Below, one piece after another: positions 1 to 42,749 of a stretch of DNA of 64,000 nt. The position numbers and the translations under genes were made by a program. Below the pieces are notes generated by a model, which saw nothing but the letters and a program-made list of their open reading frames with translations, was not told where the DNA came from and did no database searches. The stretch's first letter is position 1. Every line of letters starts with the position of its first letter. This DNA comes from Escherichia coli (lineage in GTDB: Bacteria > Pseudomonadota > Gammaproteobacteria > Enterobacterales > Enterobacteriaceae), in assembly GCF_017348835.2 (NCBI RefSeq), contig NZ_CP072317.1; one strand, written 5' to 3'.

Positions 1-3000
1 GTTTCCGGTTACCTTCCGTGCCTTCAAGCGCGATGGCAAAGGTTTCACTCGCCCCCTGCGCACCGTGGGCGGTGATGGCATAAGCCAGGTCAATATGTTG
101 CTCTGCCCGCTCCTGGCCGGGGCGAATCACCCGGGTCTGCTGTCCGTCTGACAACGTGACACTGTCACCGGAAACCGCTGTCACCGTCCAGACGCTGTTG
201 GCCACATAACCGCGCTCCCGGTCACTCTTCGTGAAGCGCATCCGGTCGCCGGTCCCCACCCGGATTTTGTCCGGGGTGTACAGTGTGACACCTTCAGCCA
301 CCGCCTCCCGGGGCGAAATCAGCCGCGTGTTACCTTCCGCATCCTCCAGGGTTATCAGCCCGTCATCCTTGCTGATACCGGCAATCCGGTGATACACACT
401 ATCCACCAGGGCAAGGGCATCCGGGTTATTCTCCCAGGTGGAGAGACGACGCAGCTCCCCGTCACGTATATTCGCTGTGTTCAGGACAGGCACCATGACC
501 TGCTCTTTCCCCAGCTCACCGGCCTTTTCCCGTGCATCATGAATCATGCTGTTCAGTACGCGCCGGTCCTCATTCAGGTGCGTGACAATCAGCGTCTGCT
601 CCCGTGCTTCCGGTGTCCTGCCGGTATAGTCGCGGACAATGGCTTCATACAGTGTCATGGGGACATCCGGAAAAGTCTCACCTTTCAGCATCGCCTTCTG
701 CTGCGCTTCTGCCAGTTTCGCTTCCTGGCTGTGACTGAACTCCGTCACGGAGTGCTCCGGTGCCCATGCGCCCTCCTGACGGGGAACCTGAGACGGTTTC
801 ACACTCTCAAGCCCGGACAGTGCCCTTTCCACATCCCGGTTAATCAGGCTGTATACCGCCTCCCGCAGTTCCGGCGTCTGACGCACAATCTCCTTCATGA
901 TGACCACATCGGCAGCACTGCGCGTCTGCTGGAGACGGAAAGGCTGACCGGGCGCGATGGCCTGCAGCTGGTCCGTGTCACCACTGGCCACGGCACGACC
1001 GCCACCGGCCGCAATCAGGGCGTATGCCCGTGCCATGTCGGTATTGCCCACCATTGAGCTCTCATCGAGCAGGAACAGCGTGTTGCTGAAATCCGGCGTT
1101 TCTCCGCTGCGCTGCTGCAGCTGCGTGTCATGCAGAAAGGACGCCAGCGTCTGTGCATCCACGCCGGCGCTGCGCATCTCACCGACCGCACGGTGCGTGG
1201 GCCCCAGCCCCACAACTCGGGGACGCTCACTCGCCGGCAGCATGTTCACGGCTGACATCACCGCCCGGAACTGTGTGGTCTTACCCACACCGGCATAACC
1301 CTGTACCACCGTGAAACGGTCGGACGTTTCCAGTATCATACGGGTGGCGGCACGCTGTCCCGACGTTAACGTCTCCATGAGTTCGCCGGGTACTCTCTCC
1401 ATCAGCGGCGTGACCGCCTCCTTACCTTCGAGAATATGGCGAAGAATACTTTTTTCTGCCTCATACGACGCACGGGAAACCAGCAGGCCTGTGCCATAGC
1501 CTTTTGCCACATCCACATACAGTAAGTCACCGCGTTTTATCTGCGCATTGATTTCCCCTCCCAGTTCAGTAAAACCGGTTCCTTCTGCAGCAAACGACTT
1601 CGCCTCTGTCAGCAGGTCCACCATGCTGAAGGCCAGGTTTTTACTTTCCAGCACAGGAAGGGCCAGATGAATGGCCTGCTGTGCCGGCGTGTGCAGCCCG
1701 GTTTTCTGCAGACTGATAGCGGTTTCCAGCGATGTCTCACCGGCCCGCGCCTTTATCTGCTCAGAAACCACCGTAAAGGAGGGATGGCGGGCAAGTTTTT
1801 CCGCAGTACGGGTTTCATCCAGTGAGGAATACAGCCGGACATCACGACCGCTGCGGGCCAGACCGTTCAGGGTGGCGTTGTCCATTGCCATCTGTGTGAC
1901 GGAGGCAAACACCGTCGCACTGTCACTGACGGAATGCCCGGGCGTTTCCACCCAGCCGTTCTCCAGCTTCAGTGCCGTGAACGGTGAATCAGCCACAGGC
2001 AGGGTGGCCGGTTCAGCCCGCCCCGGCACAACAACCGTCATCGCATCTTCACTGACGGATGCCACCTGCAGGCGGTCACCGCCGGAGACGCGGAGTCCGG
2101 GAATTTTCCCTGTCACCCTCAGTCGCTCGCCGTCTGCCACCGGCATTTTTTCCGGCCGGAACAGCGACCAGCTGCTGTCCAGGGAGGAAATACGCACCAC
2201 CTGCGTTTCGCCCTGCGCATCCCGCAGGGTCAGGCTGTGACTCTGCGCCGTCACCCGGTCGATAACATAGCGGTCATGACTGCGTGTCTCCGGGTTCCAC
2301 TGCTCCATCACCATCCCCGGTCGGTACATATCCCGCAGATAACGGCTCCGGCTGTCCAGCCAGACCGGTGACAGGGCGGTCATGGTCACCTCCGGGTGTC
2401 CGAGCACGCCCTGTGTTTTCAGCTCACTGCGAATGGCCTGTGTCAGTATGGCCTGTTCCCGTACCCCGCTGACCTGTGCCACGCTCTCTTCTCCGGCTTT
2501 CACGCTGGCCGCAAAATCTCCGGCCAGCCGGTCATAGCGGACATTCCGGTCCGGTTCACTGATGATGGTTGCCGGTCGCTGTTCTCCGCCCTGCCAGCGA
2601 TACGTGTTCACCCCGGCATCCTTCATGGCCATCAGCGCACTGCCTGTACCGGTTCGCTGCCCGCTGTCGGTTATCAGGACCTGTACGTTATGACGTGCGG
2701 CACCATCCAGCAGGGTTAACGTCTCTTTCAGGGAGAGTTTTTCGCCCTGGTCGACGATAACAGTACTGCCCGGCGTGAAGACCATGCCCTCCTGCAGCTG
2801 ACGACGTCCGGTTATCAGCTCACCGGACAGCCGTTCATCCTGCTTCAGGTTCATCTGCGAGCGACGGTCAGCAGCGATAATCTGCACCTCCCGCCCCTGC
2901 TCCCGGGCCATCATGACCAGTTCAGCCACCCGCTCACGCTGCCCGGCTGCACCGCCCTGCCCGGACACAATGGCCAGCGACGGACGGTCCTGTGCCAGAA

Positions 3001-4273
3001 CACTGACCGCATCGCTGTAACCAGCCGTCCGGGGGACACTTTTCTCCGGATGTACGGTCACCCGGTTCTGTTTCATGATGTCACGACTGAGTGCCCGGAC
3101 GGACAGCTCATCGAGCACATGAATTCCTGATGTGAACAGCCCCTTCTCACGGTCGAGGGGGATAAGCTGCTCACGGCTGATGGCCTCATCGATACCGGCG
3201 CGTGCCCGTTCAATCACACCATTTTCCGGCGGCAGTATGCCGACCGTCCTGGCCAGCACGTCCGTATACGTGAACTGCACTTTTCGTTCACTTAATCCGG
3301 CAATCGCCTGTGTCACCGCCTGCTGCACATCCGGCCCGTCCTGTGAAGCAGGCCCGGGCGCCTGCGTGCGGATCTCCGCACGCTGATCCGCCGCGTCACG
3401 ATATGCCCGGATGTCGAACCCGGTTTCCTTCAGCGTCTGCATCCATTCAGCCATTCTGACTTCAGGATCGACGTGCTGTTTGGATTTTCGCGTATCCAGT
3501 GCCGCCACATCCCGGGATTTCAGCGAGGCGTCTTCACCGACGGCCTCCCTGATAGCCTGTGAACGACTGGAAAAGGCCTCCACCGGTACGCCCGGCATCT
3601 CCCACATACCGTGCTTACCGACCACTTCGGTTTCATAACCCAGCGCCTCAACGCGCTGACGTAACTCACTCTGATATATTTTCCCGAACGCAATCCGGTT
3701 CGCTAGCACGTTCTCGGAAAATCCGGTTTTCCCCACTTTGTCACTGCTCAGTGTCTTCCACTCGCCGTTATGCTGCGTGACATTAGCCACCACTACATGC
3801 GTGTGTAACTGTGGGTCCTGATCGCGACTGGTGTCATGGTTAAACAGTGCCATCACCAGATTACCGGTCAGCACCGTTTCTGACTGTCCGTCCGTCATCA
3901 CCCGTGTGGAAGCCAGCGCCTCCACCTGACGGACAGCAAAATCCACGGCCTGGTTATGTGCATCAATAAGACGTTTATCCCCCCCGAGCATGGCCATCAT
4001 GGAGACACTTTTGGGGGCGGAGAAGGTCAGGTCGTAGCCGGGACGATGCTTATTACTGCCATCCTGCATGCGGCTTAAATCCGCCCCGTCCGGCAGCCTG
4101 CCCTCCAGAAGACGGGTAAAAACATCCTTATCGACGCTGCCCTGCAGCCCAAGCTGTTCAGCCCCCTGACCAGCCCAGCGTTCTCCCATGCTGCCCAGCA
4201 CATAGTAATTATCCTTGTCGGTGTAATAGTTTCCGGCACTGCCTGCCGATTTAACAACGCTGAAACTCAACAT
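1..4273 (-). CDS. traI: TraI relaxase/helicase, 5' portion only (3' end lies beyond window start)
   Basis: Reverse-complement translation from ATG at 4273-4271 gives [24 protein letters not shown], the F-like TraI N-terminus; ATGA overlap with traD stop; absent from ORF track because no stop inside window; frame not checked base-by-base to position 1. Confidence 0.85.
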   Translation of the reverse strand, partial: MLSFSVVKSAGSAGNYYTDKDNYYVLGSMGERWAGQGAEQLGLQGSVDKDVFTRLLEGRLPDGADLSRMQDGSNKHRPGYDLTFSAPKSVSMMAMLGGDKRLIDAHNQAVDFAVRQVEALASTRVMTDGQSETVLTGNLVMALFNHDTSRDQDPQLHTHVVVANVTQHNGEWKTLSSDKVGKTGFSENVLANRIAFGKIYQSELRQRVEALGYETEVVGKHGMWEMPGVPVEAFSSRSQAIREAVGEDASLKSRDVAALDTRKSKQHVDPEVRMAEWMQTLKETGFDIRAYRDAADQRAEIRTQAPGPASQDGPDVQQAVTQAIAGLSERKVQFTYTDVLARTVGILPPENGVIERARAGIDEAISREQLIPLDREKGLFTSGIHVLDELSVRALSRDIMKQNRVTVHPEKSVPRTAGYSDAVSVLAQDRPSLAIVSGQGGAAGQRERVAELVMMAREQGREVQIIAADRRSQMNLKQDERLSGELITGRRQLQEGMVFTPGSTVIVDQGEKLSLKETLTLLDGAARHNVQVLITDSGQRTGTGSALMAMKDAGVNTYRWQGGEQRPATIISEPDRNVRYDRLAGDFAASVKAGEESVAQVSGVREQAILTQAIRSELKTQGVLGHPEVTMTALSPVWLDSRSRYLRDMYRPGMVMEQWNPETRSHDRYVIDRVTAQSHSLTLRDAQGETQVVRISSLDSSWSLFRPEKMPVADGERLRVTGKIPGLRVSGGDRLQVASVSEDAMTVVVPGRAEPATLPVADSPFTALKLENGWVETPGHSVSDSATVFASVTQMAMDNATLNGLARSGRDVRLYSSLDETRTAEKLARHPSFTVVSEQIKARAGETSLETAISLQKTGLHTPAQQAIHLALPVLESKNLAFSMVDLLTEAKSFAAEGTGFTELGGEINAQIKRGDLLYVDVAKGYGTGLLVSRASYEAEKSILRHILEGKEAVTPLMERVPGELMETLTSGQRAATRMILETSDRFTVVQGYAGVGKTTQFRAVMSAVNMLPASERPRVVGLGPTHRAVGEMRSAGVDAQTLASFLHDTQLQQRSGETPDFSNTLFLLDESSMVGNTDMARAYALIAAGGGRAVASGDTDQLQAIAPGQPFRLQQTRSAADVVIMKEIVRQTPELREAVYSLINRDVERALSGLESVKPSQVPRQEGAWAPEHSVTEFSHSQEAKLAEAQQKAMLKGETFPDVPMTLYEAIVRDYTGRTPEAREQTLIVTHLNEDRRVLNSMIHDAREKAGELGKEQVMVPVLNTANIRDGELRRLSTWENNPDALALVDSVYHRIAGISKDDGLITLEDAEGNTRLISPREAVAEGVTLYTPDKIRVGTGDRMRFTKSDRERGYVANSVWTVTAVSGDSVTLSDGQQTRVIRPGQERAEQHIDLAYAITAHGAQGASETFAIALEGTEGNRK

Positions 4274-31098: not shown

Positions 31099-31482
31099 TT
31101 ATTCCTCATCATTTTTTGGAAAAAATCGTTCCATCTCAGATGACACCTTCTCACGAATATCTTCAACCATATTGGCATATTCAAACTTTGGATTCCCGGA
31201 GACATGGGGACTTAGAGACTCAATACCCAAAATTTTCGCTACTGATGACTGTGTTTTTACAACACATTCAAGAAGAAGTTTATTAAACTCTGTCTGATTA
31301 AACGCAGACTCTTTACGCTCCATCTGAGCCTCATATACACGAAGCCCCAGTTCAAGAAGCATTGAAGCTGTTCCCGAAACACTTATATCTTTATCTCTTG
31401 CCCCCTCCTGACGACGCTGTTCAACTATCGCATTTACTTTATCATAGACATCATTACTGATATACAAAATTACTCTGGCCAT
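31099..31482 (-). CDS. traM: TraM relaxosome accessory protein
   Basis: ORF 31099..31584; start set at MARVILYISND to give 127 aa as in F TraM. Confidence 0.9.
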   Translation of the reverse strand: MARVILYISNDVYDKVNAIVEQRRQEGARDKDISVSGTASMLLELGLRVYEAQMERKESAFNQTEFNKLLLECVVKTQSSVAKILGIESLSPHVSGNPKFEYANMVEDIREKVSSEMERFFPKNDEE

Positions 31483-31599
31483 AAGATAAAACCTTTCATT
31501 ATTAAGCAATGAACTTTTCACTATAAATATGCATATAGTGTTTACAAGTAAGAAAGACACTCCTAGCAGCGCCTCTAGGATCATCCTATAAAAAAATGC

Positions 31600-31870
31600 G
31601 ATCCGGCGCTAGGGGCGTCCCTAATATATATCAATGTTTTTCATGAAAATTGTCAGTACTGATCCTAATAAGAGTCGCTATAGGGTCGTAACAGGATCGC
31701 CAACGACTCTCTATTTAATAATTCAGAATTATTAAATATAAATAGCGTTTGTTAATTACATGATTTAAAACGTAAATCAGCAAAAACTTGTTTTTGCGTA
31801 GTGTGTGGTGCTTTTGGTGGTGAGAACCACCAACCTGTTGAGCCTTTTTGTGGAGTGGGTTAAATTATTT
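31600..31870 (+). other. oriT: oriT, nic within GTGTGT/GGTGC at about 31806/31807 on + strand
   Basis: Sequence TTTGCGTAGTGTGTGGTGCTTTTGGTGGTGAGAACCACCAACCTGTTGAG matches F/R100 oriT core; lies between traM and orf169. Confidence 0.8.
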
Positions 31871-31897
31871 ACGGATAAAGTCACCAGAGGTGGAAAA

Positions 31898-32407
31898 ATG
31901 AAAAAATGGATGTTAGCAATCTGCCTGATGTTTATAAATGGGATCTGCGAAGCCGCCGATTGCTTTGATCTTGCAGGTCGGGATTACAAAATAGACCCGG
32001 ATTTACTGAGAGCGATATCATGGAAAGAATCCCGTTACCGGGTTAATGCCATCGGTATTAATCCGGTAACGGGATATGGCAGCGGACTGATGCAGGTAGA
32101 TTCCCAGCATTTTAACGAACTGGCCCGCTATGGAATTAAGCCGGAACATCTGACAACAGATCCCTGTATGAACATTTATACCGGTGCTTATTATCTGGCA
32201 ATAGCCTTTAAAAAATGGGGCGTCTCCTGGGAGGCCGTTGGTGCATACAATGCCGGATTCAGGAAGACCGAACGCCAGAACCAGAGACGTCTTGCCTACG
32301 CATCAGAGGTTTACCGGATTTATACCTGGATAAAGAGCAGTAAAGGCATCCGGGTTCCGACCACGAAGAAATCACTTTCCCAAATTAACAGTGTGCAGAA
32401 AAATTAA
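31898..32407 (+). CDS. lytic transglycosylase (F orf169 / gene X family)
   Basis: ORF 31805..32407; start at [10 protein letters not shown] gives 169 aa with signal peptide and SLT-like motifs. Confidence 0.85.
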
Positions 32408-32703: not shown

Positions 32704-33525
32704 TCATGACTTCCACTCCCTGAACTGTTCGGCAATCATCCATAATGCTTTGTTGATTCGGATATCACCGTCAATGCCTGTAATGGCTCTTGTTCTGGTA
32801 TTTTTACCGGAGGCACTTCGCCCCGATAATCCACCTTTTATCATATTCTCCTGAACCCGCTGCCAGGTTGTCCAGAGATCGTTCTGTTTATCCTCCCAAC
32901 GGCGGGGAGTAATTATTTGTTCTGGCGTCACTGGCGTTTTATTTTCATCTTCGTACCTGGCCATCAATGCAGCTCTGCCAAATAAATGTTGTTCGTCACT
33001 GTTAAGATGTATCTCTTTCATTGTCTCCATATTTTCAGTGACTTTATCAAAGACACCGAGCACTTCATACGCTCCCTCAATAACCTGCCCGACAATATCA
33101 CCTTTATGTGGAACGCGGATTTCGCCAAAATTATTCCCACACACCAGGCCATTTGTGCAGACAAAACGAAAAATTCCTGGGATCATCTGATAACTGGATG
33201 AACCATCATGTGAATTAAGCAGGATAATTTCAGGAACTTCTTTCCCGTTAATATGCCCTTCCCTGCGAAGACGTAACATATGTTTACTGTATTCGCGGCG
33301 TCCCAAATCACGAACCCGACTCTGACAGGCAAAGAATGGCTGGAAACCTTCATCACGTAACTTATTGATGATATTGATGGTTGGGATATATGTATAACGC
33401 TCACTCCGGGATTCATGTTTATCACCAGAAAAGACAGATGGAACAAACTGCATTAATTCGTCATCCGTTAACGGGCGCTCACGGCGAATAGAATTATATC
33501 GACCAAAACGGGAAGCTAATCGCAT
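32704..33525 (-). CDS. conserved leading-region protein (F orf273-like)
   Basis: 273-aa ORF in the orf273 position of F-like leading regions. Confidence 0.55.
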   Translation of the reverse strand: MRLASRFGRYNSIRRERPLTDDELMQFVPSVFSGDKHESRSERYTYIPTINIINKLRDEGFQPFFACQSRVRDLGRREYSKHMLRLRREGHINGKEVPEIILLNSHDGSSSYQMIPGIFRFVCTNGLVCGNNFGEIRVPHKGDIVGQVIEGAYEVLGVFDKVTENMETMKEIHLNSDEQHLFGRAALMARYEDENKTPVTPEQIITPRRWEDKQNDLWTTWQRVQENMIKGGLSGRSASGKNTRTRAITGIDGDIRINKALWMIAEQFREWKS

Positions 33526-33635
33526 AACAGTAACTCCTTTATGAAGGCATAAAATTAATAAAAGTTTTTTCGCTTAATATCATCCCCCCTCGGTTATCGT
33601 TAACAAAAAGACAACAATTCCGAGGGGAAGGACCA

Positions 33636-33932
33636 TCAAATCAGGTCAGTTCGGGACTGACCAACCTGCCGAGTGAAAAGCAGTAACAGCGCGATCAACT
33701 CATCAGCGTTTTTTCTGACAAGAGGAGTATGATTCTCCAGGCTATCCAGTAAGTCATGCAGCTCATTATTGACCTGGTGGAGCACCTTAAAGAGTGCACC
33801 AGAATCCCGGCAGCTCTGATATGCAAGATTTGCCTGAACAGCACGATTCTGCATGATCCCGATTTGTGCGATTGCGTCTTTCTGCTGATCGCCTGTTGGC
33901 TGATAAGTGGTGTTAAAAGAAAATGCGCTCAT
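33636..33932 (-). CDS. hypothetical protein, first ORF 3' of Frpo-like repeat copy 1
   Basis: 98-aa ORF; start codon 9 bp from the repeat boundary. Confidence 0.45.
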   Translation of the reverse strand: MSAFSFNTTYQPTGDQQKDAIAQIGIMQNRAVQANLAYQSCRDSGALFKVLHQVNNELHDLLDSLENHTPLVRKNADELIALLLLFTRQVGQSRTDLI

Positions 33933-33940
33933 AATTCCTC

Positions 33941-34620
33941 CTGTATCTGATGTTTTCAGCCCCCATCATCTGTTGAGTTTCGGGAGCCGCGGTTTTGACG
34001 TTTTGCGGGGACCTGCCTTTTGTTCCCTCCGGTATTCACCATCACCTGTTTGAGAACCTTCGCCGCAAGGGGCATCACTGCCACGGCCTGACGCACCTGT
34101 CCTGGGCAGAACGCAAAATTTTTTACCGGGTTTTGGGTAAAAAATTTTGTGGGCTGTTCATTTACCCTGGACAGTCAGTGCGGCAGGTTGTGGCTGTCTA
34201 TGCCCCCGGCGACAGGGGCTTAAACAGGTGAATGGCACCGGACAGAACAACGGGCAGGGACCCGCCGCAACGACGTGAAGCGCGGTTTGCGAAACGGCGT
34301 TGCTCCTTACATCCCGGCGTCTTTTGCCGGGATGCCGGGAGCGCAGGCCACGGCGCGACAAGGGTGGCGCGACCGTTCCGGTCGCTGCAAACCCGGGTTT
34401 TTGCGTCAGGGATGGAAGCCCGCCAGGGCGGAGACAGCTTCGCTGGCTCCGTTCACGACAGCCCGCCCCGCCAGGGGGACGCCCGGAAAAGGCATAAGCA
34501 GGAGAACAACAAAACAGACAATAATCAGGGCAGCAGTAATCAGAGTCAGAGCAGTAATCAGAGTCAGAGCAGGAGGAAAAAGAGAATAATCAAAGGGAAG
34601 GTGATGTGATTTCTGGTAAG
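33941..34620 (+). promoter_or_regulatory. Frpo/ssi-like repeat unit, copy 1 (candidate single-stranded-DNA promoter)
   Basis: Near-identical to 39431-40110 and related to 42750-43400; contains a ~230-nt imperfect hairpin on the + (transferred) strand. Confidence 0.6.
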
Positions 34621-34846: not shown

Positions 34847-35005
34847 CTACTTACCGGATTCGTAAGCCATGAAAGCCGCCACCTCCCTGTGTCCGTCTCT
34901 GTAACGAATCTCGCACAGCGATTTTCGTGTCAGATAAGTGAATATCAACAGTGTGAGACACACGATCAACACACACCAGACAAGGGAACTTCGTGGTAGT
35001 TTCAT
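34847..35005 (-). CDS. hok: Hok-family toxin (hok/flmA)
   Basis: Manual translation gives [52 protein letters not shown] (52 aa); below ORF-track size cutoff; GC hairpin 34821-34840 in 3' region. Confidence 0.85.
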
Positions 35006-35063
35006 GGCCTTCTTCTCCTTGCGCAAAGCGCGGTAAGAGGCTATCCTGATGTGGACTAGACAT
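34851..35063 (-). CDS. mok: Mok (modulation of killing) overlapping reading frame
   Basis: 70-aa ORF overlapping hok in another frame, as in hok/sok loci; sok antisense RNA expected on + strand about 35030-35110 but not delimited. Confidence 0.55.
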
Positions 35064-35284
35064 AGGGATGCCTCGTGGTGGTTAATGAAAATTAACTTAC
35101 TACGGGGCTATCTTCTTTCTGCCACACAACACGGTAACAAACCACCTTCACGTCATGAGGCAGAAAGCCTCAAGCGCCGGGCACATCATAGCCCATATAC
35201 CTGCACGCTGACCACACTCACTTTTCCTGAAAATAACCCGCTCATTCAGGCTGTTTACGGGTAATCTGTGTGATTGTTGCCGCA

Positions 35285-36004
35285 TCACGCCGCCTCCCGG
35301 AGTTTGTTCGGCACCATCCACCGCTCCATCTCACGGACAGCGTGACCGGCCTCTCTTGCTGCAAGACTGGCTTCCGCAATAACCTGCCAGAACGGCATAT
35401 CCTGCCACTGCCAGCGTTCCATTCCGGCCAGTGACGGAAAACGCTCACCCCACTGCCAGAACAGGGTTTCCAGGTCATGCTCTGCCACCCGGTCACTCCA
35501 GCGTGCATGCCAGCTTCCGACTGTTTCCGGCGAATGGAATGCCAGTTCGATTTCAGCCTGAGCGACCAGCGCCTGGTACGCACGGGCTTTCTGCTCTGCC
35601 TCCCTCGCCTGCTGGCGGCTGTACTTTTGCATGACCAGTGCGGATTTGTGGCGACTGCGCTCCCTGACACGGAACCGCACCGACGGGAACAGCCGCTCTG
35701 CTGCATCGCCGGGAAGGGGAAGAAGGCAGACCTCGCCCTGAGTTTCAATCAGCACATCGACGGCATACAGCCACTGAGAACGGTTGCCGCGCAGTTCTTC
35801 TGCGGTCAGGGACGGCATGAAAAATCGCAGGTCAGACAGCGATATCCTGCGGCTTCCGTTCAGACAGCGGAAAAACGCCCCCGCATACGGATATTCCGCC
35901 AGCGTGTTTCCCTGGTGGCGGCGTTTTTCTGTCTCCGCCACCGCCCGCCATGCGGCCTGTTGCTCTGCGCTGAGGGGAACCAGTGCCTGTGAACGTGCGC
36001 TCAT
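35285..36004 (-). CDS. psiA: PsiA plasmid SOS inhibition protein A
   Basis: 239-aa ORF, stop/start coupled to psiB. Confidence 0.9.
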
Positions 36005-36435
36005 GCCTGACCTCCTTCCGCCATCAGGATATGGATGATGTCACTGACGCTGTACCCCTGCGCGTCCAGTGACGCCGCCAGTGCCAGTGAATGGCTGACG
36101 GCTTCCGGTGCAAACCGCCGCTGTACCTGAACCACCGCAAACGGCTCACCACCGGCATTCACCAGAACCAGCACCCAGACCTGAGAGACATCGCCCGGTG
36201 AACATAACGCCAGGTGAAAACGTTCGTGGGCAGGCGTGAAACGGACCTGGACGGGGAAAAAGCCGCCGAACTCGCTGCCATACTCGCCGTTCATCGTCCA
36301 GTTATCCGGCGCATCCAGCTCCCGCATCACGGCATGTGTGAGTTCACGACGTTCATCACTTCCGGCAGCCCGGATATCTTCATATTCCTGTGCGCTCATG
36401 GTCTGTAATACATTCAGGGTCAGTTCAGTTTTCAT
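36001..36435 (-). CDS. psiB: PsiB plasmid SOS inhibition protein B
   Basis: 144-aa product from second Met, matches F PsiB. Confidence 0.9.
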
Positions 36436-36503
36436 CACGGTATCTCCCTTGCTGCCGCCCCGTCTCCGGCAGGGCGGCGTGATAAATGGTTTATGACTGG
36501 CGG

Positions 36504-38527
36504 TCAGGCGGCTTCTGCCTGGTCGTCACGGTACTCCGTGGTTTCCGTCTCTGCCTGTGGACGTGGTGTACACATCCAGCCAGGCACCCAGCGGTTGTCT
36601 TTCATGTGGAACTCTGCATGTTCAGCGGCATCGCCTTTCTTCATTTTCTCCGCGTCCCGCGCAGCACCGGACAGTCCGGCATCATTCAGGGCATCGATAA
36701 TCTGCGGCTTTTGCAGGTGTCCGAAGAAGTTTGCTTTCGTCGGCTGCCACCAGTCGCGCATGTGGAATCCGATAGCGCTCTCCAGCGAGTCCAGCGGACT
36801 GCGTGACGTGTGACCATGCTCGCGGGTCTGAACGCCGTGGATGCTGCACGCGGTGCAGAAACTGAGCAGGGATAACAGTACCTCCTGGCTGAGTGACAGG
36901 AATGTCGTCATATCCCGTGACCATCCCTCCGGTAACAGGGCTGCAAGACGGGCTTTTTCTGCCATCAGCGCCAGGAATGCGGCACCGTCCTTCCCCGATG
37001 GCGCATCGCTGGTCAGCGAATAATGTTTACATTCCAGGCTGATTTGTGCTGGTTTACTGTACGCTCCGCTGCCAAACACATTCAGGCAGAGCGCTGATGA
37101 ATCCCCTAATGATTTTGGTAAAAATCATTAGGGGATTCATCAGGGCAGAGCGTCCATGCCAGCAGTGCCAGAGATTTGTCCGGTTGCTGCATCAGTGCTG
37201 CCTGGACTGCCAGCGTGCGTTCGGAAGACATTTTCGTCAGCAGTGGCAGACTGATTTCCTCCACGGGCGCTTTCTCCTGCACCTGTTCCGTGCGGTCAGC
37301 GTCGTCAGCCGCATCATCCTCGCTGCGCAACTGCACACCACGCTGGACACACACGTTGCCATAACGCCAGGACACCACCACACCGCTTCCGGCACGCATC
37401 TCCGGCGTCCACGCCCTGACCTTCGCCATGCAGCGCATCAGCTTCATTTCTGCTTCCAGCAGGTCAGATTCCTCACACTGGTTTTCCAGCGCGTCGTAAC
37501 GCGTCATCAGTTCGTTCAGACGTTCTTCTTCCGCCTCCGTCAGCACCGCTTCCGGCTCCGGCAGACAGCGGTATGTTCCGGCATCCTCACGGCACTCACC
37601 GACAGGCTCCATGCGTCCGGCGCACCATCCCCAGCCTTCGGCTTCCCGAAGGTGTTCAGCAACAGCCTGGAGTTTTTCCAGCAGGGCGGCATCGAGCGCC
37701 ACGCAGTCCACATAGCCACCCTCGTCGTCGCTGAACAGGTCAGTGCGCAGTTCATCTGGCGAGAAGGCATCAGCCCCCACGAAGCGGAATTTACTGTTCC
37801 CTGCCACCGCCACTTCACTTTCGGTCACCAGACGACGAATGGTCTGTACTTCCGGTTTACCGCCCCATCCCGACTGACAGGCGGCTTCAAACACCTGCAC
37901 CTGACGCGCGGTGTCGTTCTCCAGCGCCAGCGCCTGACAGTGCTCGGTGGTGATGAGGTCTTCTGCCAGCGCATCGAGGATGACAGGCGCAAGGTCAGCC
38001 AGTTTCAGCATTCGCTGAACGTGGCGGGGTGAATAGCCCAGCAAATCACCGATTTGTGCAGGTGTTTTGCCTTCCTGCGCCATTGCACAGAATCCGGCAA
38101 TCTGTTCGGCTGGGTGCATATCCCGACGATGACCGTTCTCGGTCATCGATGCGGCCGTCGCCAGTTCCTGCGAAATAATTTTCACGCGGACAGGCCAGTC
38201 AGCCGGAATGATGCCACGCTCTGCCAGCATGTTGAGTGCTGCCAGTCGGCGACCACCTGCGGCGACACCGTGGCGGTCACCTGGCAGGGCATGAACAACC
38301 AGATTCTGCAGCAGGCCGACCCCCTTAATGGAATCAGCCAGTTCGCTGACGGACTCCGCAGAATACGGCACCGTGCGCACATTCAGTGGTGACTTAATCA
38401 GCGAGGCCAGCGGCACGCTCACTTCCTCCGTCTGCGCCAGCAGGGCAGACAGGACAGTTTCCTGCGTTTTTGCAGGTTTACGGCTTGCTTTACGGGTAGA
38501 TTTTGGTTCAGACTTTGTTACTGACAT
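36504..38527 (-). pseudogene. ParB-like leading-region gene disrupted by a 59-bp insertion
   Basis: ORFs 37106..38527 and 36504..37079 are in different frames; removing the 50-bp element plus one 9-bp duplicate restores one frame; upstream ORF ends in DESPNDFYQNH encoded by the insert. Confidence 0.7.
37094..37143. mobile_element. 50-bp palindromic mini-element made of IS10 terminal inverted-repeat sequence, flanked by 9-bp direct repeats
   Basis: CTGATGAATCCCCTAATGATTTTGGTAAAAATCATTAGGGGATTCATCAG; flanking GGCAGAGCG at 37085-37093 and 37144-37152. Confidence 0.65.
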
Positions 38528-38878: not shown

Positions 38879-39406
38879 TCAGAACGGGATATCGTCTGAA
38901 AACCCGTAATCCTCCCCCTCCGGTGGTTGCGGCTGAGGCTCCGGCTGCGCAGCCTTACGTCCACGGCCTTTCGTTTTCGCGCTCCCTTTTTTCGTCGCGT
39001 CAGCACTCTGTGACTGACCATTCTGCTGAGGCTGCGGTTGCACCTGAGCGTTCTGCTGTGGTGCACTCCCCAGCATCTGCATGGTGCCCGTGGTTTTAAC
39101 AAGGATTTCGGTGACGTAACGGGTAATACCGTTATCTTCCCAGCTACGGGTGCGAAGCTGGCCTTCAATGTAGACCTGCGCCCCCTTACGCAGATATTCA
39201 CCTGCCACTTCCGCGAGCTTGCCGAACAGCACCACGCGGTGCCATTCCGTCTGCTCCTTCATTTCCCCCGTCTGTTTGTCGCGCCAGGTTTCTGACGTGG
39301 CCACCTGCAGGTTTGCCACTGCGCCCCCGTTGGGGATGTAACGGACTTCCGGATCTTTTCCCAGACGACCGACAAGAATGACCTTGTTAATGCCACGAAC
39401 TGCCAT
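38879..39406 (-). CDS. ssb: plasmid single-stranded DNA-binding protein
   Basis: ORF 38879..39445; start at [16 protein letters not shown]; OB-fold N-terminus, Q/P-rich linker, acidic tail DDIPF. Confidence 0.92.
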
Positions 39407-39430
39407 GATGTGTCTCCTTCTGTTGATGTT

Positions 39431-40110
39431 TTCAGCCCCCATCATCTGTTGAGTTTCGGGAGCCGCGGTTTTGACGTTTTGCGGGGACCTGCCTTTTGTT
39501 CCCTCCGGTATTCACCATCACCTGTTTGAGAACCTTCGCCGCAAGGGGCATCACTGCCACGGCCTGACGCACCTGTCCTGGGCAGAACGCAAAATTTTTT
39601 ACCGGGTTTTGGGTAAAAAATTTTGTGGGCTGTTCATTTACCCTGGACAGTCAGTGCGGCAGGTTGTGGCTGTCTATGCCCCCGGCGACAGGGGCTTAAA
39701 CAGGTGAATGGCACCGGACAGAACAACGGGCAGGGACCCGCCGCAACGACGTGAAGCGCGGTTTGCGAAACGGCGTTGCTCCTTACATCCCGGCGTCTTT
39801 TGCCGGGATGCCGGGAGCGCAGGCCACGGCGCGACAAGGGTGGCGCGACCGTTCCGGTCGCTGCAAACCCGGGTTTTTGCGTCAGGGATGGAAGCCCGCC
39901 AGGGCGGAGACAGCTTCGCTGGCTCCGTTCACGACAGCCCGCCCCGCCAGGGGGACGCCCGGAAAAGGCATAAGCAGGAGAACAACAAAACAGACAATAA
40001 TCAGGGCAGTAGAAAAAAGAAGAACAGTAGCAGTAGCAGTAGCAGTAGCAGTAGCAGTAGCAGTAGCAGTAGCAGTAGCAGGAACAACAACATCATCAGT
40101 AACAGACAAA
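39431..40110 (+). promoter_or_regulatory. Frpo/ssi-like repeat unit, copy 2, immediately 5' of ssb
   Basis: Near-identical to copy 1; ssb start about 25 bp away. Confidence 0.65.
40026..40081. repeat. hexanucleotide microsatellite (CAGTAG, about 9 copies)
   Basis: Perfect tandem repeat at the distal end of repeat copy 2; copy 1 carries an 18-bp-type imperfect repeat at the same place. Confidence 0.9.
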
Positions 40111-42283: not shown

Positions 42284-42514
42284 TCAGTTAAAAGCGCGTT
42301 TCAGTTCGAGTGTGCGGAGCACCTGCCCGAAAGCCGTATTTTTCATGGCGGGGATGTGTACACCACGTCCCCGGTGAAAACTCCGGGCAATGTGTCGCCC
42401 GAAGGCTTTCAGCACGGGGTCAATTTCCGGCGCGGGGATGTCTTCGCGTCTGAAACGGGGATGACGGCGGGGCTTTACAGCCGCTGCGGAAGGTGAAACA
42501 ATACTTACCGTCAT
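42284..42514 (-). CDS. hypothetical basic small protein, first ORF 3' of Frpo-like copy 3
   Basis: 76-aa ORF. Confidence 0.4.
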   Translation of the reverse strand: MTVSIVSPSAAAVKPRRHPRFRREDIPAPEIDPVLKAFGRHIARSFHRGRGVHIPAMKNTAFGQVLRTLELKRAFN

Positions 42515-42749
42515 AAATGAAACTCCTTATGACTGTTGAATGGAACCGCAGAAACTGCTCGAACAGTTTTTGCGGTGTGGATTAAGCAGGTCCTCCCCGG
42601 CCTGCTTTTTTCATATCTGCGTCTGACGTTCTCCGGTGTTTTCCTCCTTCTGTTCCTGCGTTCTCATTACCTGCCAGCCGGATGACTGACAGAACAAATA
42701 AATGCGTATTGCCGGAGCCTGAAATAAATCCTGATTTTTAAAGAACATC

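Follow-up and report, generated by a model that had tools for sequence, protein, structure and literature searches.

yeiA, the first gene behind the oriT-proximal Frpo element of R100-type plasmids, is unrelated to its F counterpart and lies in an exchangeable cassette site

Introduction

Leading-region genes on ssDNA promoters decide the establishment of resistance plasmids in a new host. In F, the sole experimental model, Frpo1 is followed first by an ORF known as orf95, ygeA or yubO and then by the DUF932 gene, here called ygeB or yubP. A YgeA-sfGFP fusion was seen before ss-to-ds conversion, transiently and in an Frpo1-dependent manner (Couturier 2023, PMC9849209). Transfer amounted to 93% in the wild type, 25% in the Frpo1 deletion and 3.9% in the ygeA deletion, so that F without YgeA transfers more than 20-fold less; a deletion of ygeB alone was not obtainable (PMC9849209). 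Transcripts under the control of Frpo1/2 are enriched in recipients (PMC12672017), and Frpo transcripts prime complementary-strand synthesis in vitro as well as in vivo (bioRxiv 10.64898/2026.01.09.698686). Leading regions are enriched in anti-defence genes that lie behind Frpo and use the T-strand (PMC11541004), and the DUF932/YubP family has been flagged as possibly anti-restriction by structure (Samuel et al.).

The gene described here, yeiA of R100-type plasmids, resembles ssb, psiB, psiA, yfjA, yfjB and the ardA of IncI1 plasmids in having the T-strand as its template, in directly following a class-1 ssDNA promoter and in being near oriT. It differs from them in two respects: their proteins have assigned activities or Pfam families, whereas YeiA has none, and YeiA is restricted to a subset of F-like plasmids, unlike the other Frpo/ssi-driven leading-region genes. 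It is an ordinary, real member of a known gene class and reveals no new kind of system; that the gene is annotated as hypothetical, and that its regulatory unit is of a known kind, was known already. What is new is that the first gene behind Frpo1 in R100-type plasmids is unrelated to that of F and that the slot which the two genes occupy is an exchangeable cassette site.

Position and identity of yeiA

The window analysed here is a stretch of 64,000 nucleotides of Escherichia coli contig NZ_CP072317.1 (assembly GCF_017348835.2). Exactly where the original prediction had placed a 98-aa ORF, at 33636-33932, the minus strand carries a yeiA-family CDS of 98 codons, with its ATG at 33932-33930 and the stop included at 33636. 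A Shine-Dalgarno sequence, AGGAGG, can be read on the same strand at 33937-33942, 4 nt upstream of the ATG. Across a 110-nt spacer (33526-33635), the second cistron of the unit follows on the minus strand, a DUF932 gene of 273 aa (32704-33525) that is the orthologue of YgeB/YubP.

Megablast of positions 33500-34400 returned plasmid R100 (NC_002134) at 100% identity, together with many IncF plasmids of E. coli, Klebsiella, Shigella and Salmonella, likewise at 100%. In R100, the ORF is annotated as the CDS WP_001272251.1, “hypothetical protein”, and the identical protein is named “YeiA” in UniRef. The description as “unassigned” therefore calls for a qualification, the ORF being an annotated hypothetical protein; its family has no Pfam or NCBIfam model. 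The literature yielded no publication on YeiA or WP_001272251, and the protein was not found in the tables of Samuel et al., in which the YubP/DUF932 family and the small YubO family are present.

The minus-strand genes around yeiA, from traM to ssb, point towards oriT: traM (31099-31584), hok/sok (about 34847-35179), psiA (35285-36004), psiB (36001-36438), a ParB-like gene (36504-38527) and ssb (38879-39445). The gene of an SLT transglycosylase (31805-32407, + strand) is in the opposite orientation.

The spacer between yeiA and the DUF932 gene contains a hairpin (33586-33627) that consists of CCCCTCGG, a 26-nt loop with an inner stem, and CCGAGGGG. F has a counterpart at the same place (CCCTCCTG/CCAGGGGG), the arms of which differ yet pair, indicating that the stem has been kept through compensatory changes. 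The hairpin is not a canonical terminator; RNA processing or stability and ssDNA structure are candidate roles.

The Frpo element and the transferred strand

Copy 1 of the Frpo-like repeat, a class-1 ssDNA promoter element, extends from 33948 to 34402. It is the + strand that folds, and transcription would run leftwards into yeiA. The main hairpin comprises 319 nt (33977-34295, + strand) with its apex loop at 34128-34135, and a 496-nt segment around it, folded as ssDNA, reaches -148 kcal/mol (z = -12.8 relative to shuffles). Copy 1 is 93% identical to Frpo2 and 89% to Frpo1 of F, and it matches the F ssiD/Frpo reference sequence of Samuel et al. (Table S2); the repeat is thus a true Frpo homologue. 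Neither a sigma-70 consensus scan nor inspection by eye located -35/-10 hexamers in copy 1.

Two further copies are found in the window, both direct: copy 2 (39424-39878) is 100% identical to copy 1 over 455 nt, and copy 3 (42730-43183) is 85-89% identical. When the three copies and their flanks are aligned, the identity of copies 1 and 2 ends 15 nt upstream of the yeiA ATG, and conservation relative to F or to copy 3 ends 22 nt upstream. The original prediction was thus right in placing the ORF immediately downstream of copy 1, as its first cistron, and erred in the distance of the start codon from the repeat, given as 9 bp and measured as 15 nt. A looser repeat boundary that includes the shared GGAG would give about 9.

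The + strand also carries AGTGTGTGGTGCTTT at 31800-31814, about 2.1 kb from yeiA, which is the nic motif (AGTGTGT/GGTGCTTT) of the R100-type oriT. With the nic motif on the + strand, this strand is the transferred one and hence the template for yeiA; it enters 5' to 3' towards yeiA. The minus-strand orientation of yeiA is the same as that of psiB and ssb, in keeping with a leading-region gene for which the T-strand serves as template.

yeiA is a protein-coding gene under purifying selection

Members of the yeiA family were found by tblastn in 1,797 PLSDB plasmids, and in 1,718 of these (96%) the match covers at least 80% of the YeiA query. The identity is at least 99% in 1,374 plasmids and 60-80% in 234. 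Among five diverged members (30-70% pairwise identity), dN/dS ranges from 0.09 to 0.31 in the comparisons with unsaturated dS, and yeiA is accordingly under purifying selection. Taken together, the CDS annotation in R100, the occurrence in 1,797 plasmids, the low dN/dS and a confident AlphaFold2 fold (see below) establish yeiA as a real protein-coding gene, more than a chance ORF. The two yeiA alleles form a mosaic, with a dS of 0.04 over codons 1-40 as against 1.38 over codons 41-92, a contrast that points to recombination inside the gene.

An exhaustive profile search of 1.84 billion representative proteins returned just 50 matches, all of them members of the YeiA family or fragments thereof save one adhesin; the range of the family among enterobacterial plasmids is narrow. 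The adhesin (P0127, 2,628 aa, 13 matching stretches) was rejected as a relative, as it is repetitive and its repeat fits the N-terminal profile by chance.

These data bear on a reading according to which the YeiA protein is irrelevant and the ORF is a leader or spacer, either tuning the expression of the DUF932 gene or supplying the RNA primer for complementary-strand synthesis. The priming of this synthesis by Frpo transcripts (bioRxiv 10.64898/2026.01.09.698686) and the conserved hairpin between yeiA and the DUF932 gene would be in line with such a role. It is nevertheless very improbable: dN/dS lies far under 1 at saturated dS, members of as little as 31-43% identity still show amino-acid conservation with invariant residues, the fold is confident, and an empty slot also occurs. 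A purely cis-acting leader function is unlikely in view of the selection that acts on the protein.

Cassette architecture of the Frpo1-DUF932 slot

In F, the slot of yeiA is taken by ygeA, in the same orientation and with a product of similar size (95 aa vs 98 aa for YeiA). The DNA of F and that of the window are near-identical through Frpo as far as about 20 nt short of the ATG, and the near-identity resumes at the stop codon. The proteins encoded in between are not homologous, as BLASTP of YeiA against YgeA/YubO gave no alignment and hhalign a probability of 0.8%; they also differ in pI (9.7 for YgeA, 5.8 for YeiA). In the R100 allele, the final four codons and the stop of yeiA (TDLI*) extend into a stretch with homology to the stop region of ygeA.

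Some plasmids carry both genes. In pFHI_NMBU_10_01, a full Frpo is followed by a yeiA allele of 100 aa (70% identical), then by an Frpo remnant with an internal deletion, and finally by ygeA and DUF932. Such a remnant between yeiA and ygeA, at 3304-3459 of locus L012 (NZ_CP046540), joins about 50 nt from the distal part of Frpo to about 40 nt from its promoter-proximal end. It shows that an Frpo end of its own once belonged to each small cassette or still moves with it. The tandem layout, with yeiA and ygeA each behind an Frpo end, occurs in at least 71 plasmids; the two genes are thus separate cassettes, not alleles. On the basis of this layout, F and R100 appear to have arisen from a two-cassette array by reciprocal deletions, unless a cassette was inserted into one of them. 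The opposite situation is found in the Klebsiella plasmid pBJ108-KPC (NZ_MT108209, locus L011), where a diverged Frpo-like element (2615-3001, 67% identical) abuts the DUF932 start: neither yeiA nor ygeA nor any other small ORF precedes DUF932, and a DUF5983 gene follows it.

In PLSDB, ygeA occurs in 3,052 plasmids and DUF932 in at least 5,000, as compared with 1,797 for the yeiA family. With yeiA, ygeA, both or neither behind Frpo1, yeiA is an optional cassette of the Frpo1-DUF932 unit, and its slot, which lies between Frpo ends, behaves as a site of cassette exchange. This has consequences for the experimental model. At least 1,374 near-identical plasmids (at least 99% identity) of E. coli, Klebsiella, Shigella and Salmonella have yeiA as the first gene of their oriT-proximal Frpo unit; the gene that F carries in its place is a different and unrelated one. 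R100/IncFII plasmids can therefore not simply be assumed to share the strong phenotype that ygeA has in F, and the testable question arises of whether yeiA complements an F ygeA deletion.

More distant members of the family are found in comparable surroundings. P0121 (43% identical; locus L004), in a diverged F-like plasmid, lies 18 nt behind an Frpo-like hairpin and ahead of DUF932, SLT and traM, and P0119 (56% identical; locus L008) lies 16 nt behind an Frpo-like element. P0124 (locus L013) comes third after an Frpo of 92.5% identity, within a series of small ORFs on the same strand, the last of which encodes an MqsA-like antitoxin. The remote member P0125 (33-37% identical), the N-terminus of which is cut by IS1, resides in a plasmid of the MOBC/MPF_T type; small ORFs come after it, with a J-domain (DnaJ) protein encoded two genes downstream; the loci of the IS1-cut member are L009/L010 (GCA_019958175 and GCA_019957805) and L003 (NZ_CP037908). 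According to these four contexts, the family is tied to Frpo units and not always to DUF932: yeiA is consistently a leading-region gene of an Frpo unit, and its linkage to DUF932 is not consistent.

The linkage is of relevance for another reading, in which the co-transcribed DUF932 protein has YeiA as its partner or modulator, YeiA thereby being a non-homologous functional analogue of F YgeA. yeiA adjoins DUF932 in R100-type plasmids as well as in the diverged L004 plasmid, and in F the ygeA deletion (3.9%) is worse than the Frpo1 deletion while ygeB alone is undeletable (PMC9849209), which suggests an interplay of the small gene and DUF932. We regard such a partnership as improbable on several grounds. 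Between the window and the L004 plasmid, DUF932 is 93% conserved and the small protein 43% identical, and the two hence do not co-vary. YeiA family members are found without DUF932, DUF932 is found directly behind Frpo without a small ORF (pBJ108-KPC), and in the tandem plasmids ygeA sits between yeiA and DUF932. An AlphaFold2 model of a YeiA-(GGGGS)6-DUF932 fusion, a crude and weak test, gave no sign of docking, with the N-terminus disordered and a pTM of 0.56; the DUF932 part of this model had no distinct fold match.

Fold and sequence features of YeiA

YeiA comprises 98 aa (11.0 kDa, pI 5.8, charge about -2). The AlphaFold2 model, computed from a 15-sequence alignment, is a three-helix bundle (H14-41, H44-64 and H70-96; mean pLDDT 81, pTM 0.68) preceded by a disordered segment of residues 1-13. 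Seven residues are invariant across the family (A31, V32, A34, E57, L58, H68 and K74). Conservation also extends to an N-terminal M(S/G)AFxF and to the loop between helices 2 and 3, ExHTPV(I/F)RKKA; a catalytic motif is lacking.

The original description of the ORF as having no recognisable motifs is borne out by searches of Pfam, NCBIfam, PHROGs and PADLOC, none of which gave a match above threshold. The best Pfam match was ApoLp-III (E 0.014, 16 bits vs a cutoff of 36) and the best PHROG match had an E of 0.23. ApoLp-III and, in PADLOC, RTasSLATT were rejected as sub-threshold matches that reflect helical composition. Searches of the PDB by sequence, profile and fold found no match, nor was there a match to viral folds. 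The structure prediction that had been recommended as a follow-up thus yielded a generic three-helix bundle with no informative match. Among generic bundles, the BAG domain (4hwh), YlaN, the GAT domain and Legionella Lem22 share 9-17% identity with YeiA, and no Foldseek E-value is below 0.1. As de novo designed bundles score equally well, a three-helix fold match is uninformative on function.

A resemblance to the N-terminal part (Q-motif, domain 1a) of UvrB, YQPTGDQQKDAIAQI vs FKPSGDQPEAIRRL, was considered and not upheld by database-level searches. Pairwise BLASTP of YeiA against a UvrB sequence gave an E of 8e-4 for residues 4-50. YeiA profile searches of the 1.84 billion proteins and of the PDB contained no UvrB, the PTGDQ motif is lost in remote YeiA members, and YeiA has no Walker A motif (GxxGxGKT).

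Anti-defence screening, the other recommended follow-up, found no above-threshold match of YeiA to known anti-defence or anti-restriction families (ArdA, KlcA/ArdB, Ocr, Acr and others in Pfam/PHROGs). The result weighs against a further reading, namely that YeiA is an anti-defence protein inhibiting a restriction, CRISPR or other immune system of the recipient. This is possible, if doubtful. YeiA is small, non-enzymatic and accessory, present or absent between close plasmids, and has mosaic alleles (dS 0.04 in codons 1-40, 1.38 in codons 41-92); leading regions are rich in T-strand anti-defence genes behind Frpo (PMC11541004), and the neighbouring DUF932/YubP family is the one flagged as possibly anti-restriction (Samuel et al.). 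On the other hand, not only a sequence match but also a fold match to known anti-defence families is missing, with a charge of about -2 YeiA cannot be a classical DNA mimic, its dN/dS gives no sign of positive selection, and its family has a narrow range among enterobacterial plasmids.

Proposed role of YeiA

By analogy with F, it appears rather probable that YeiA is a zygotically induced, non-enzymatic binding protein that is encoded by the first cistron of the Frpo1 unit and helps establishment. Its early expression may be inferred from the homology of its promoter to F elements of demonstrated activity. The unit could operate in the following manner: When the transferred (+) strand enters the recipient, Frpo would fold into its long hairpin, which host RNA polymerase would use as a promoter. 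Transcription would then proceed towards oriT through yeiA and subsequently the DUF932 gene. Complementary-strand synthesis would destroy the hairpin and thereby turn the promoter off, limiting YeiA to a short pulse. As yeiA is the first gene behind the ssDNA promoter, YeiA is probably made in a short burst on entry of the plasmid into a new cell.

For the protein itself, we infer a stoichiometric role: during establishment, YeiA may bind a host or plasmid protein. The lack of catalytic motifs, the compact helical bundle, the flexible and conserved N-terminal peptide and the conserved His/Arg-Lys-Lys loop point in this direction, “binder” being the default assignment for a fold as generic as this one. 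Many F-like plasmids, including F, do without yeiA, and any role must hence be accessory; its optional, mosaic and cassette-like distribution is in keeping with an accessory gene for host interaction or anti-defence. A more far-reaching version of the proposal, which we consider unlikely, is that YeiA is the first representative of a hitherto unrecognised protein family, induced zygotically and serving to manipulate the host or to counter its defence, and that in the clinically dominant R100/IncFII-type resistance plasmids it may hold the place of YgeA in F. If this were true, YeiA and YgeA would be non-homologous solutions to one establishment problem, shuffled by Frpo x Frpo recombination. 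The J-domain neighbour of the remote family member and the generic BAG-like fold together offer a very weak hint at a chaperone connection.

Other features of the leading region

Copies 1 and 2 of Frpo are direct repeats 5,476 bp apart that flank hok/sok, psiA, psiB, the ParB-like gene and ssb. Their 100% identity over 455 nt points to recent gene conversion and provides a standing substrate for deletion of the intervening segment; hok/sok has been proposed to guard against this inter-Frpo deletion (Couturier et al., PMC9849209). Just distal to each of these copies lies a tandem repeat, at 34522-34572 (an 18-nt unit in 3 copies) and at 40025-40081 (CAGTAG in 9.5 copies). The two tandem repeats occupy equivalent positions relative to the Frpo copies but differ in unit and length.

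The ParB/RepB-like leading gene (36504-38527, minus strand) appears split into a 473-aa ORF (37106-38527) and a 191-aa ORF (36504-37079) where F has a single 652-aa gene, and it may be a pseudogene or carry a frameshift in this plasmid. Further along, the + strand has a match to the Rfam family AS-pc01, “antisense to pHK01_035” (42509-42610; 89.7 bits, the gathering score being 79). A 76-aa ORF on the minus strand (42284-42514), about 215 nt below Frpo copy 3, shares its 5' end with this match and may therefore be under antisense control.
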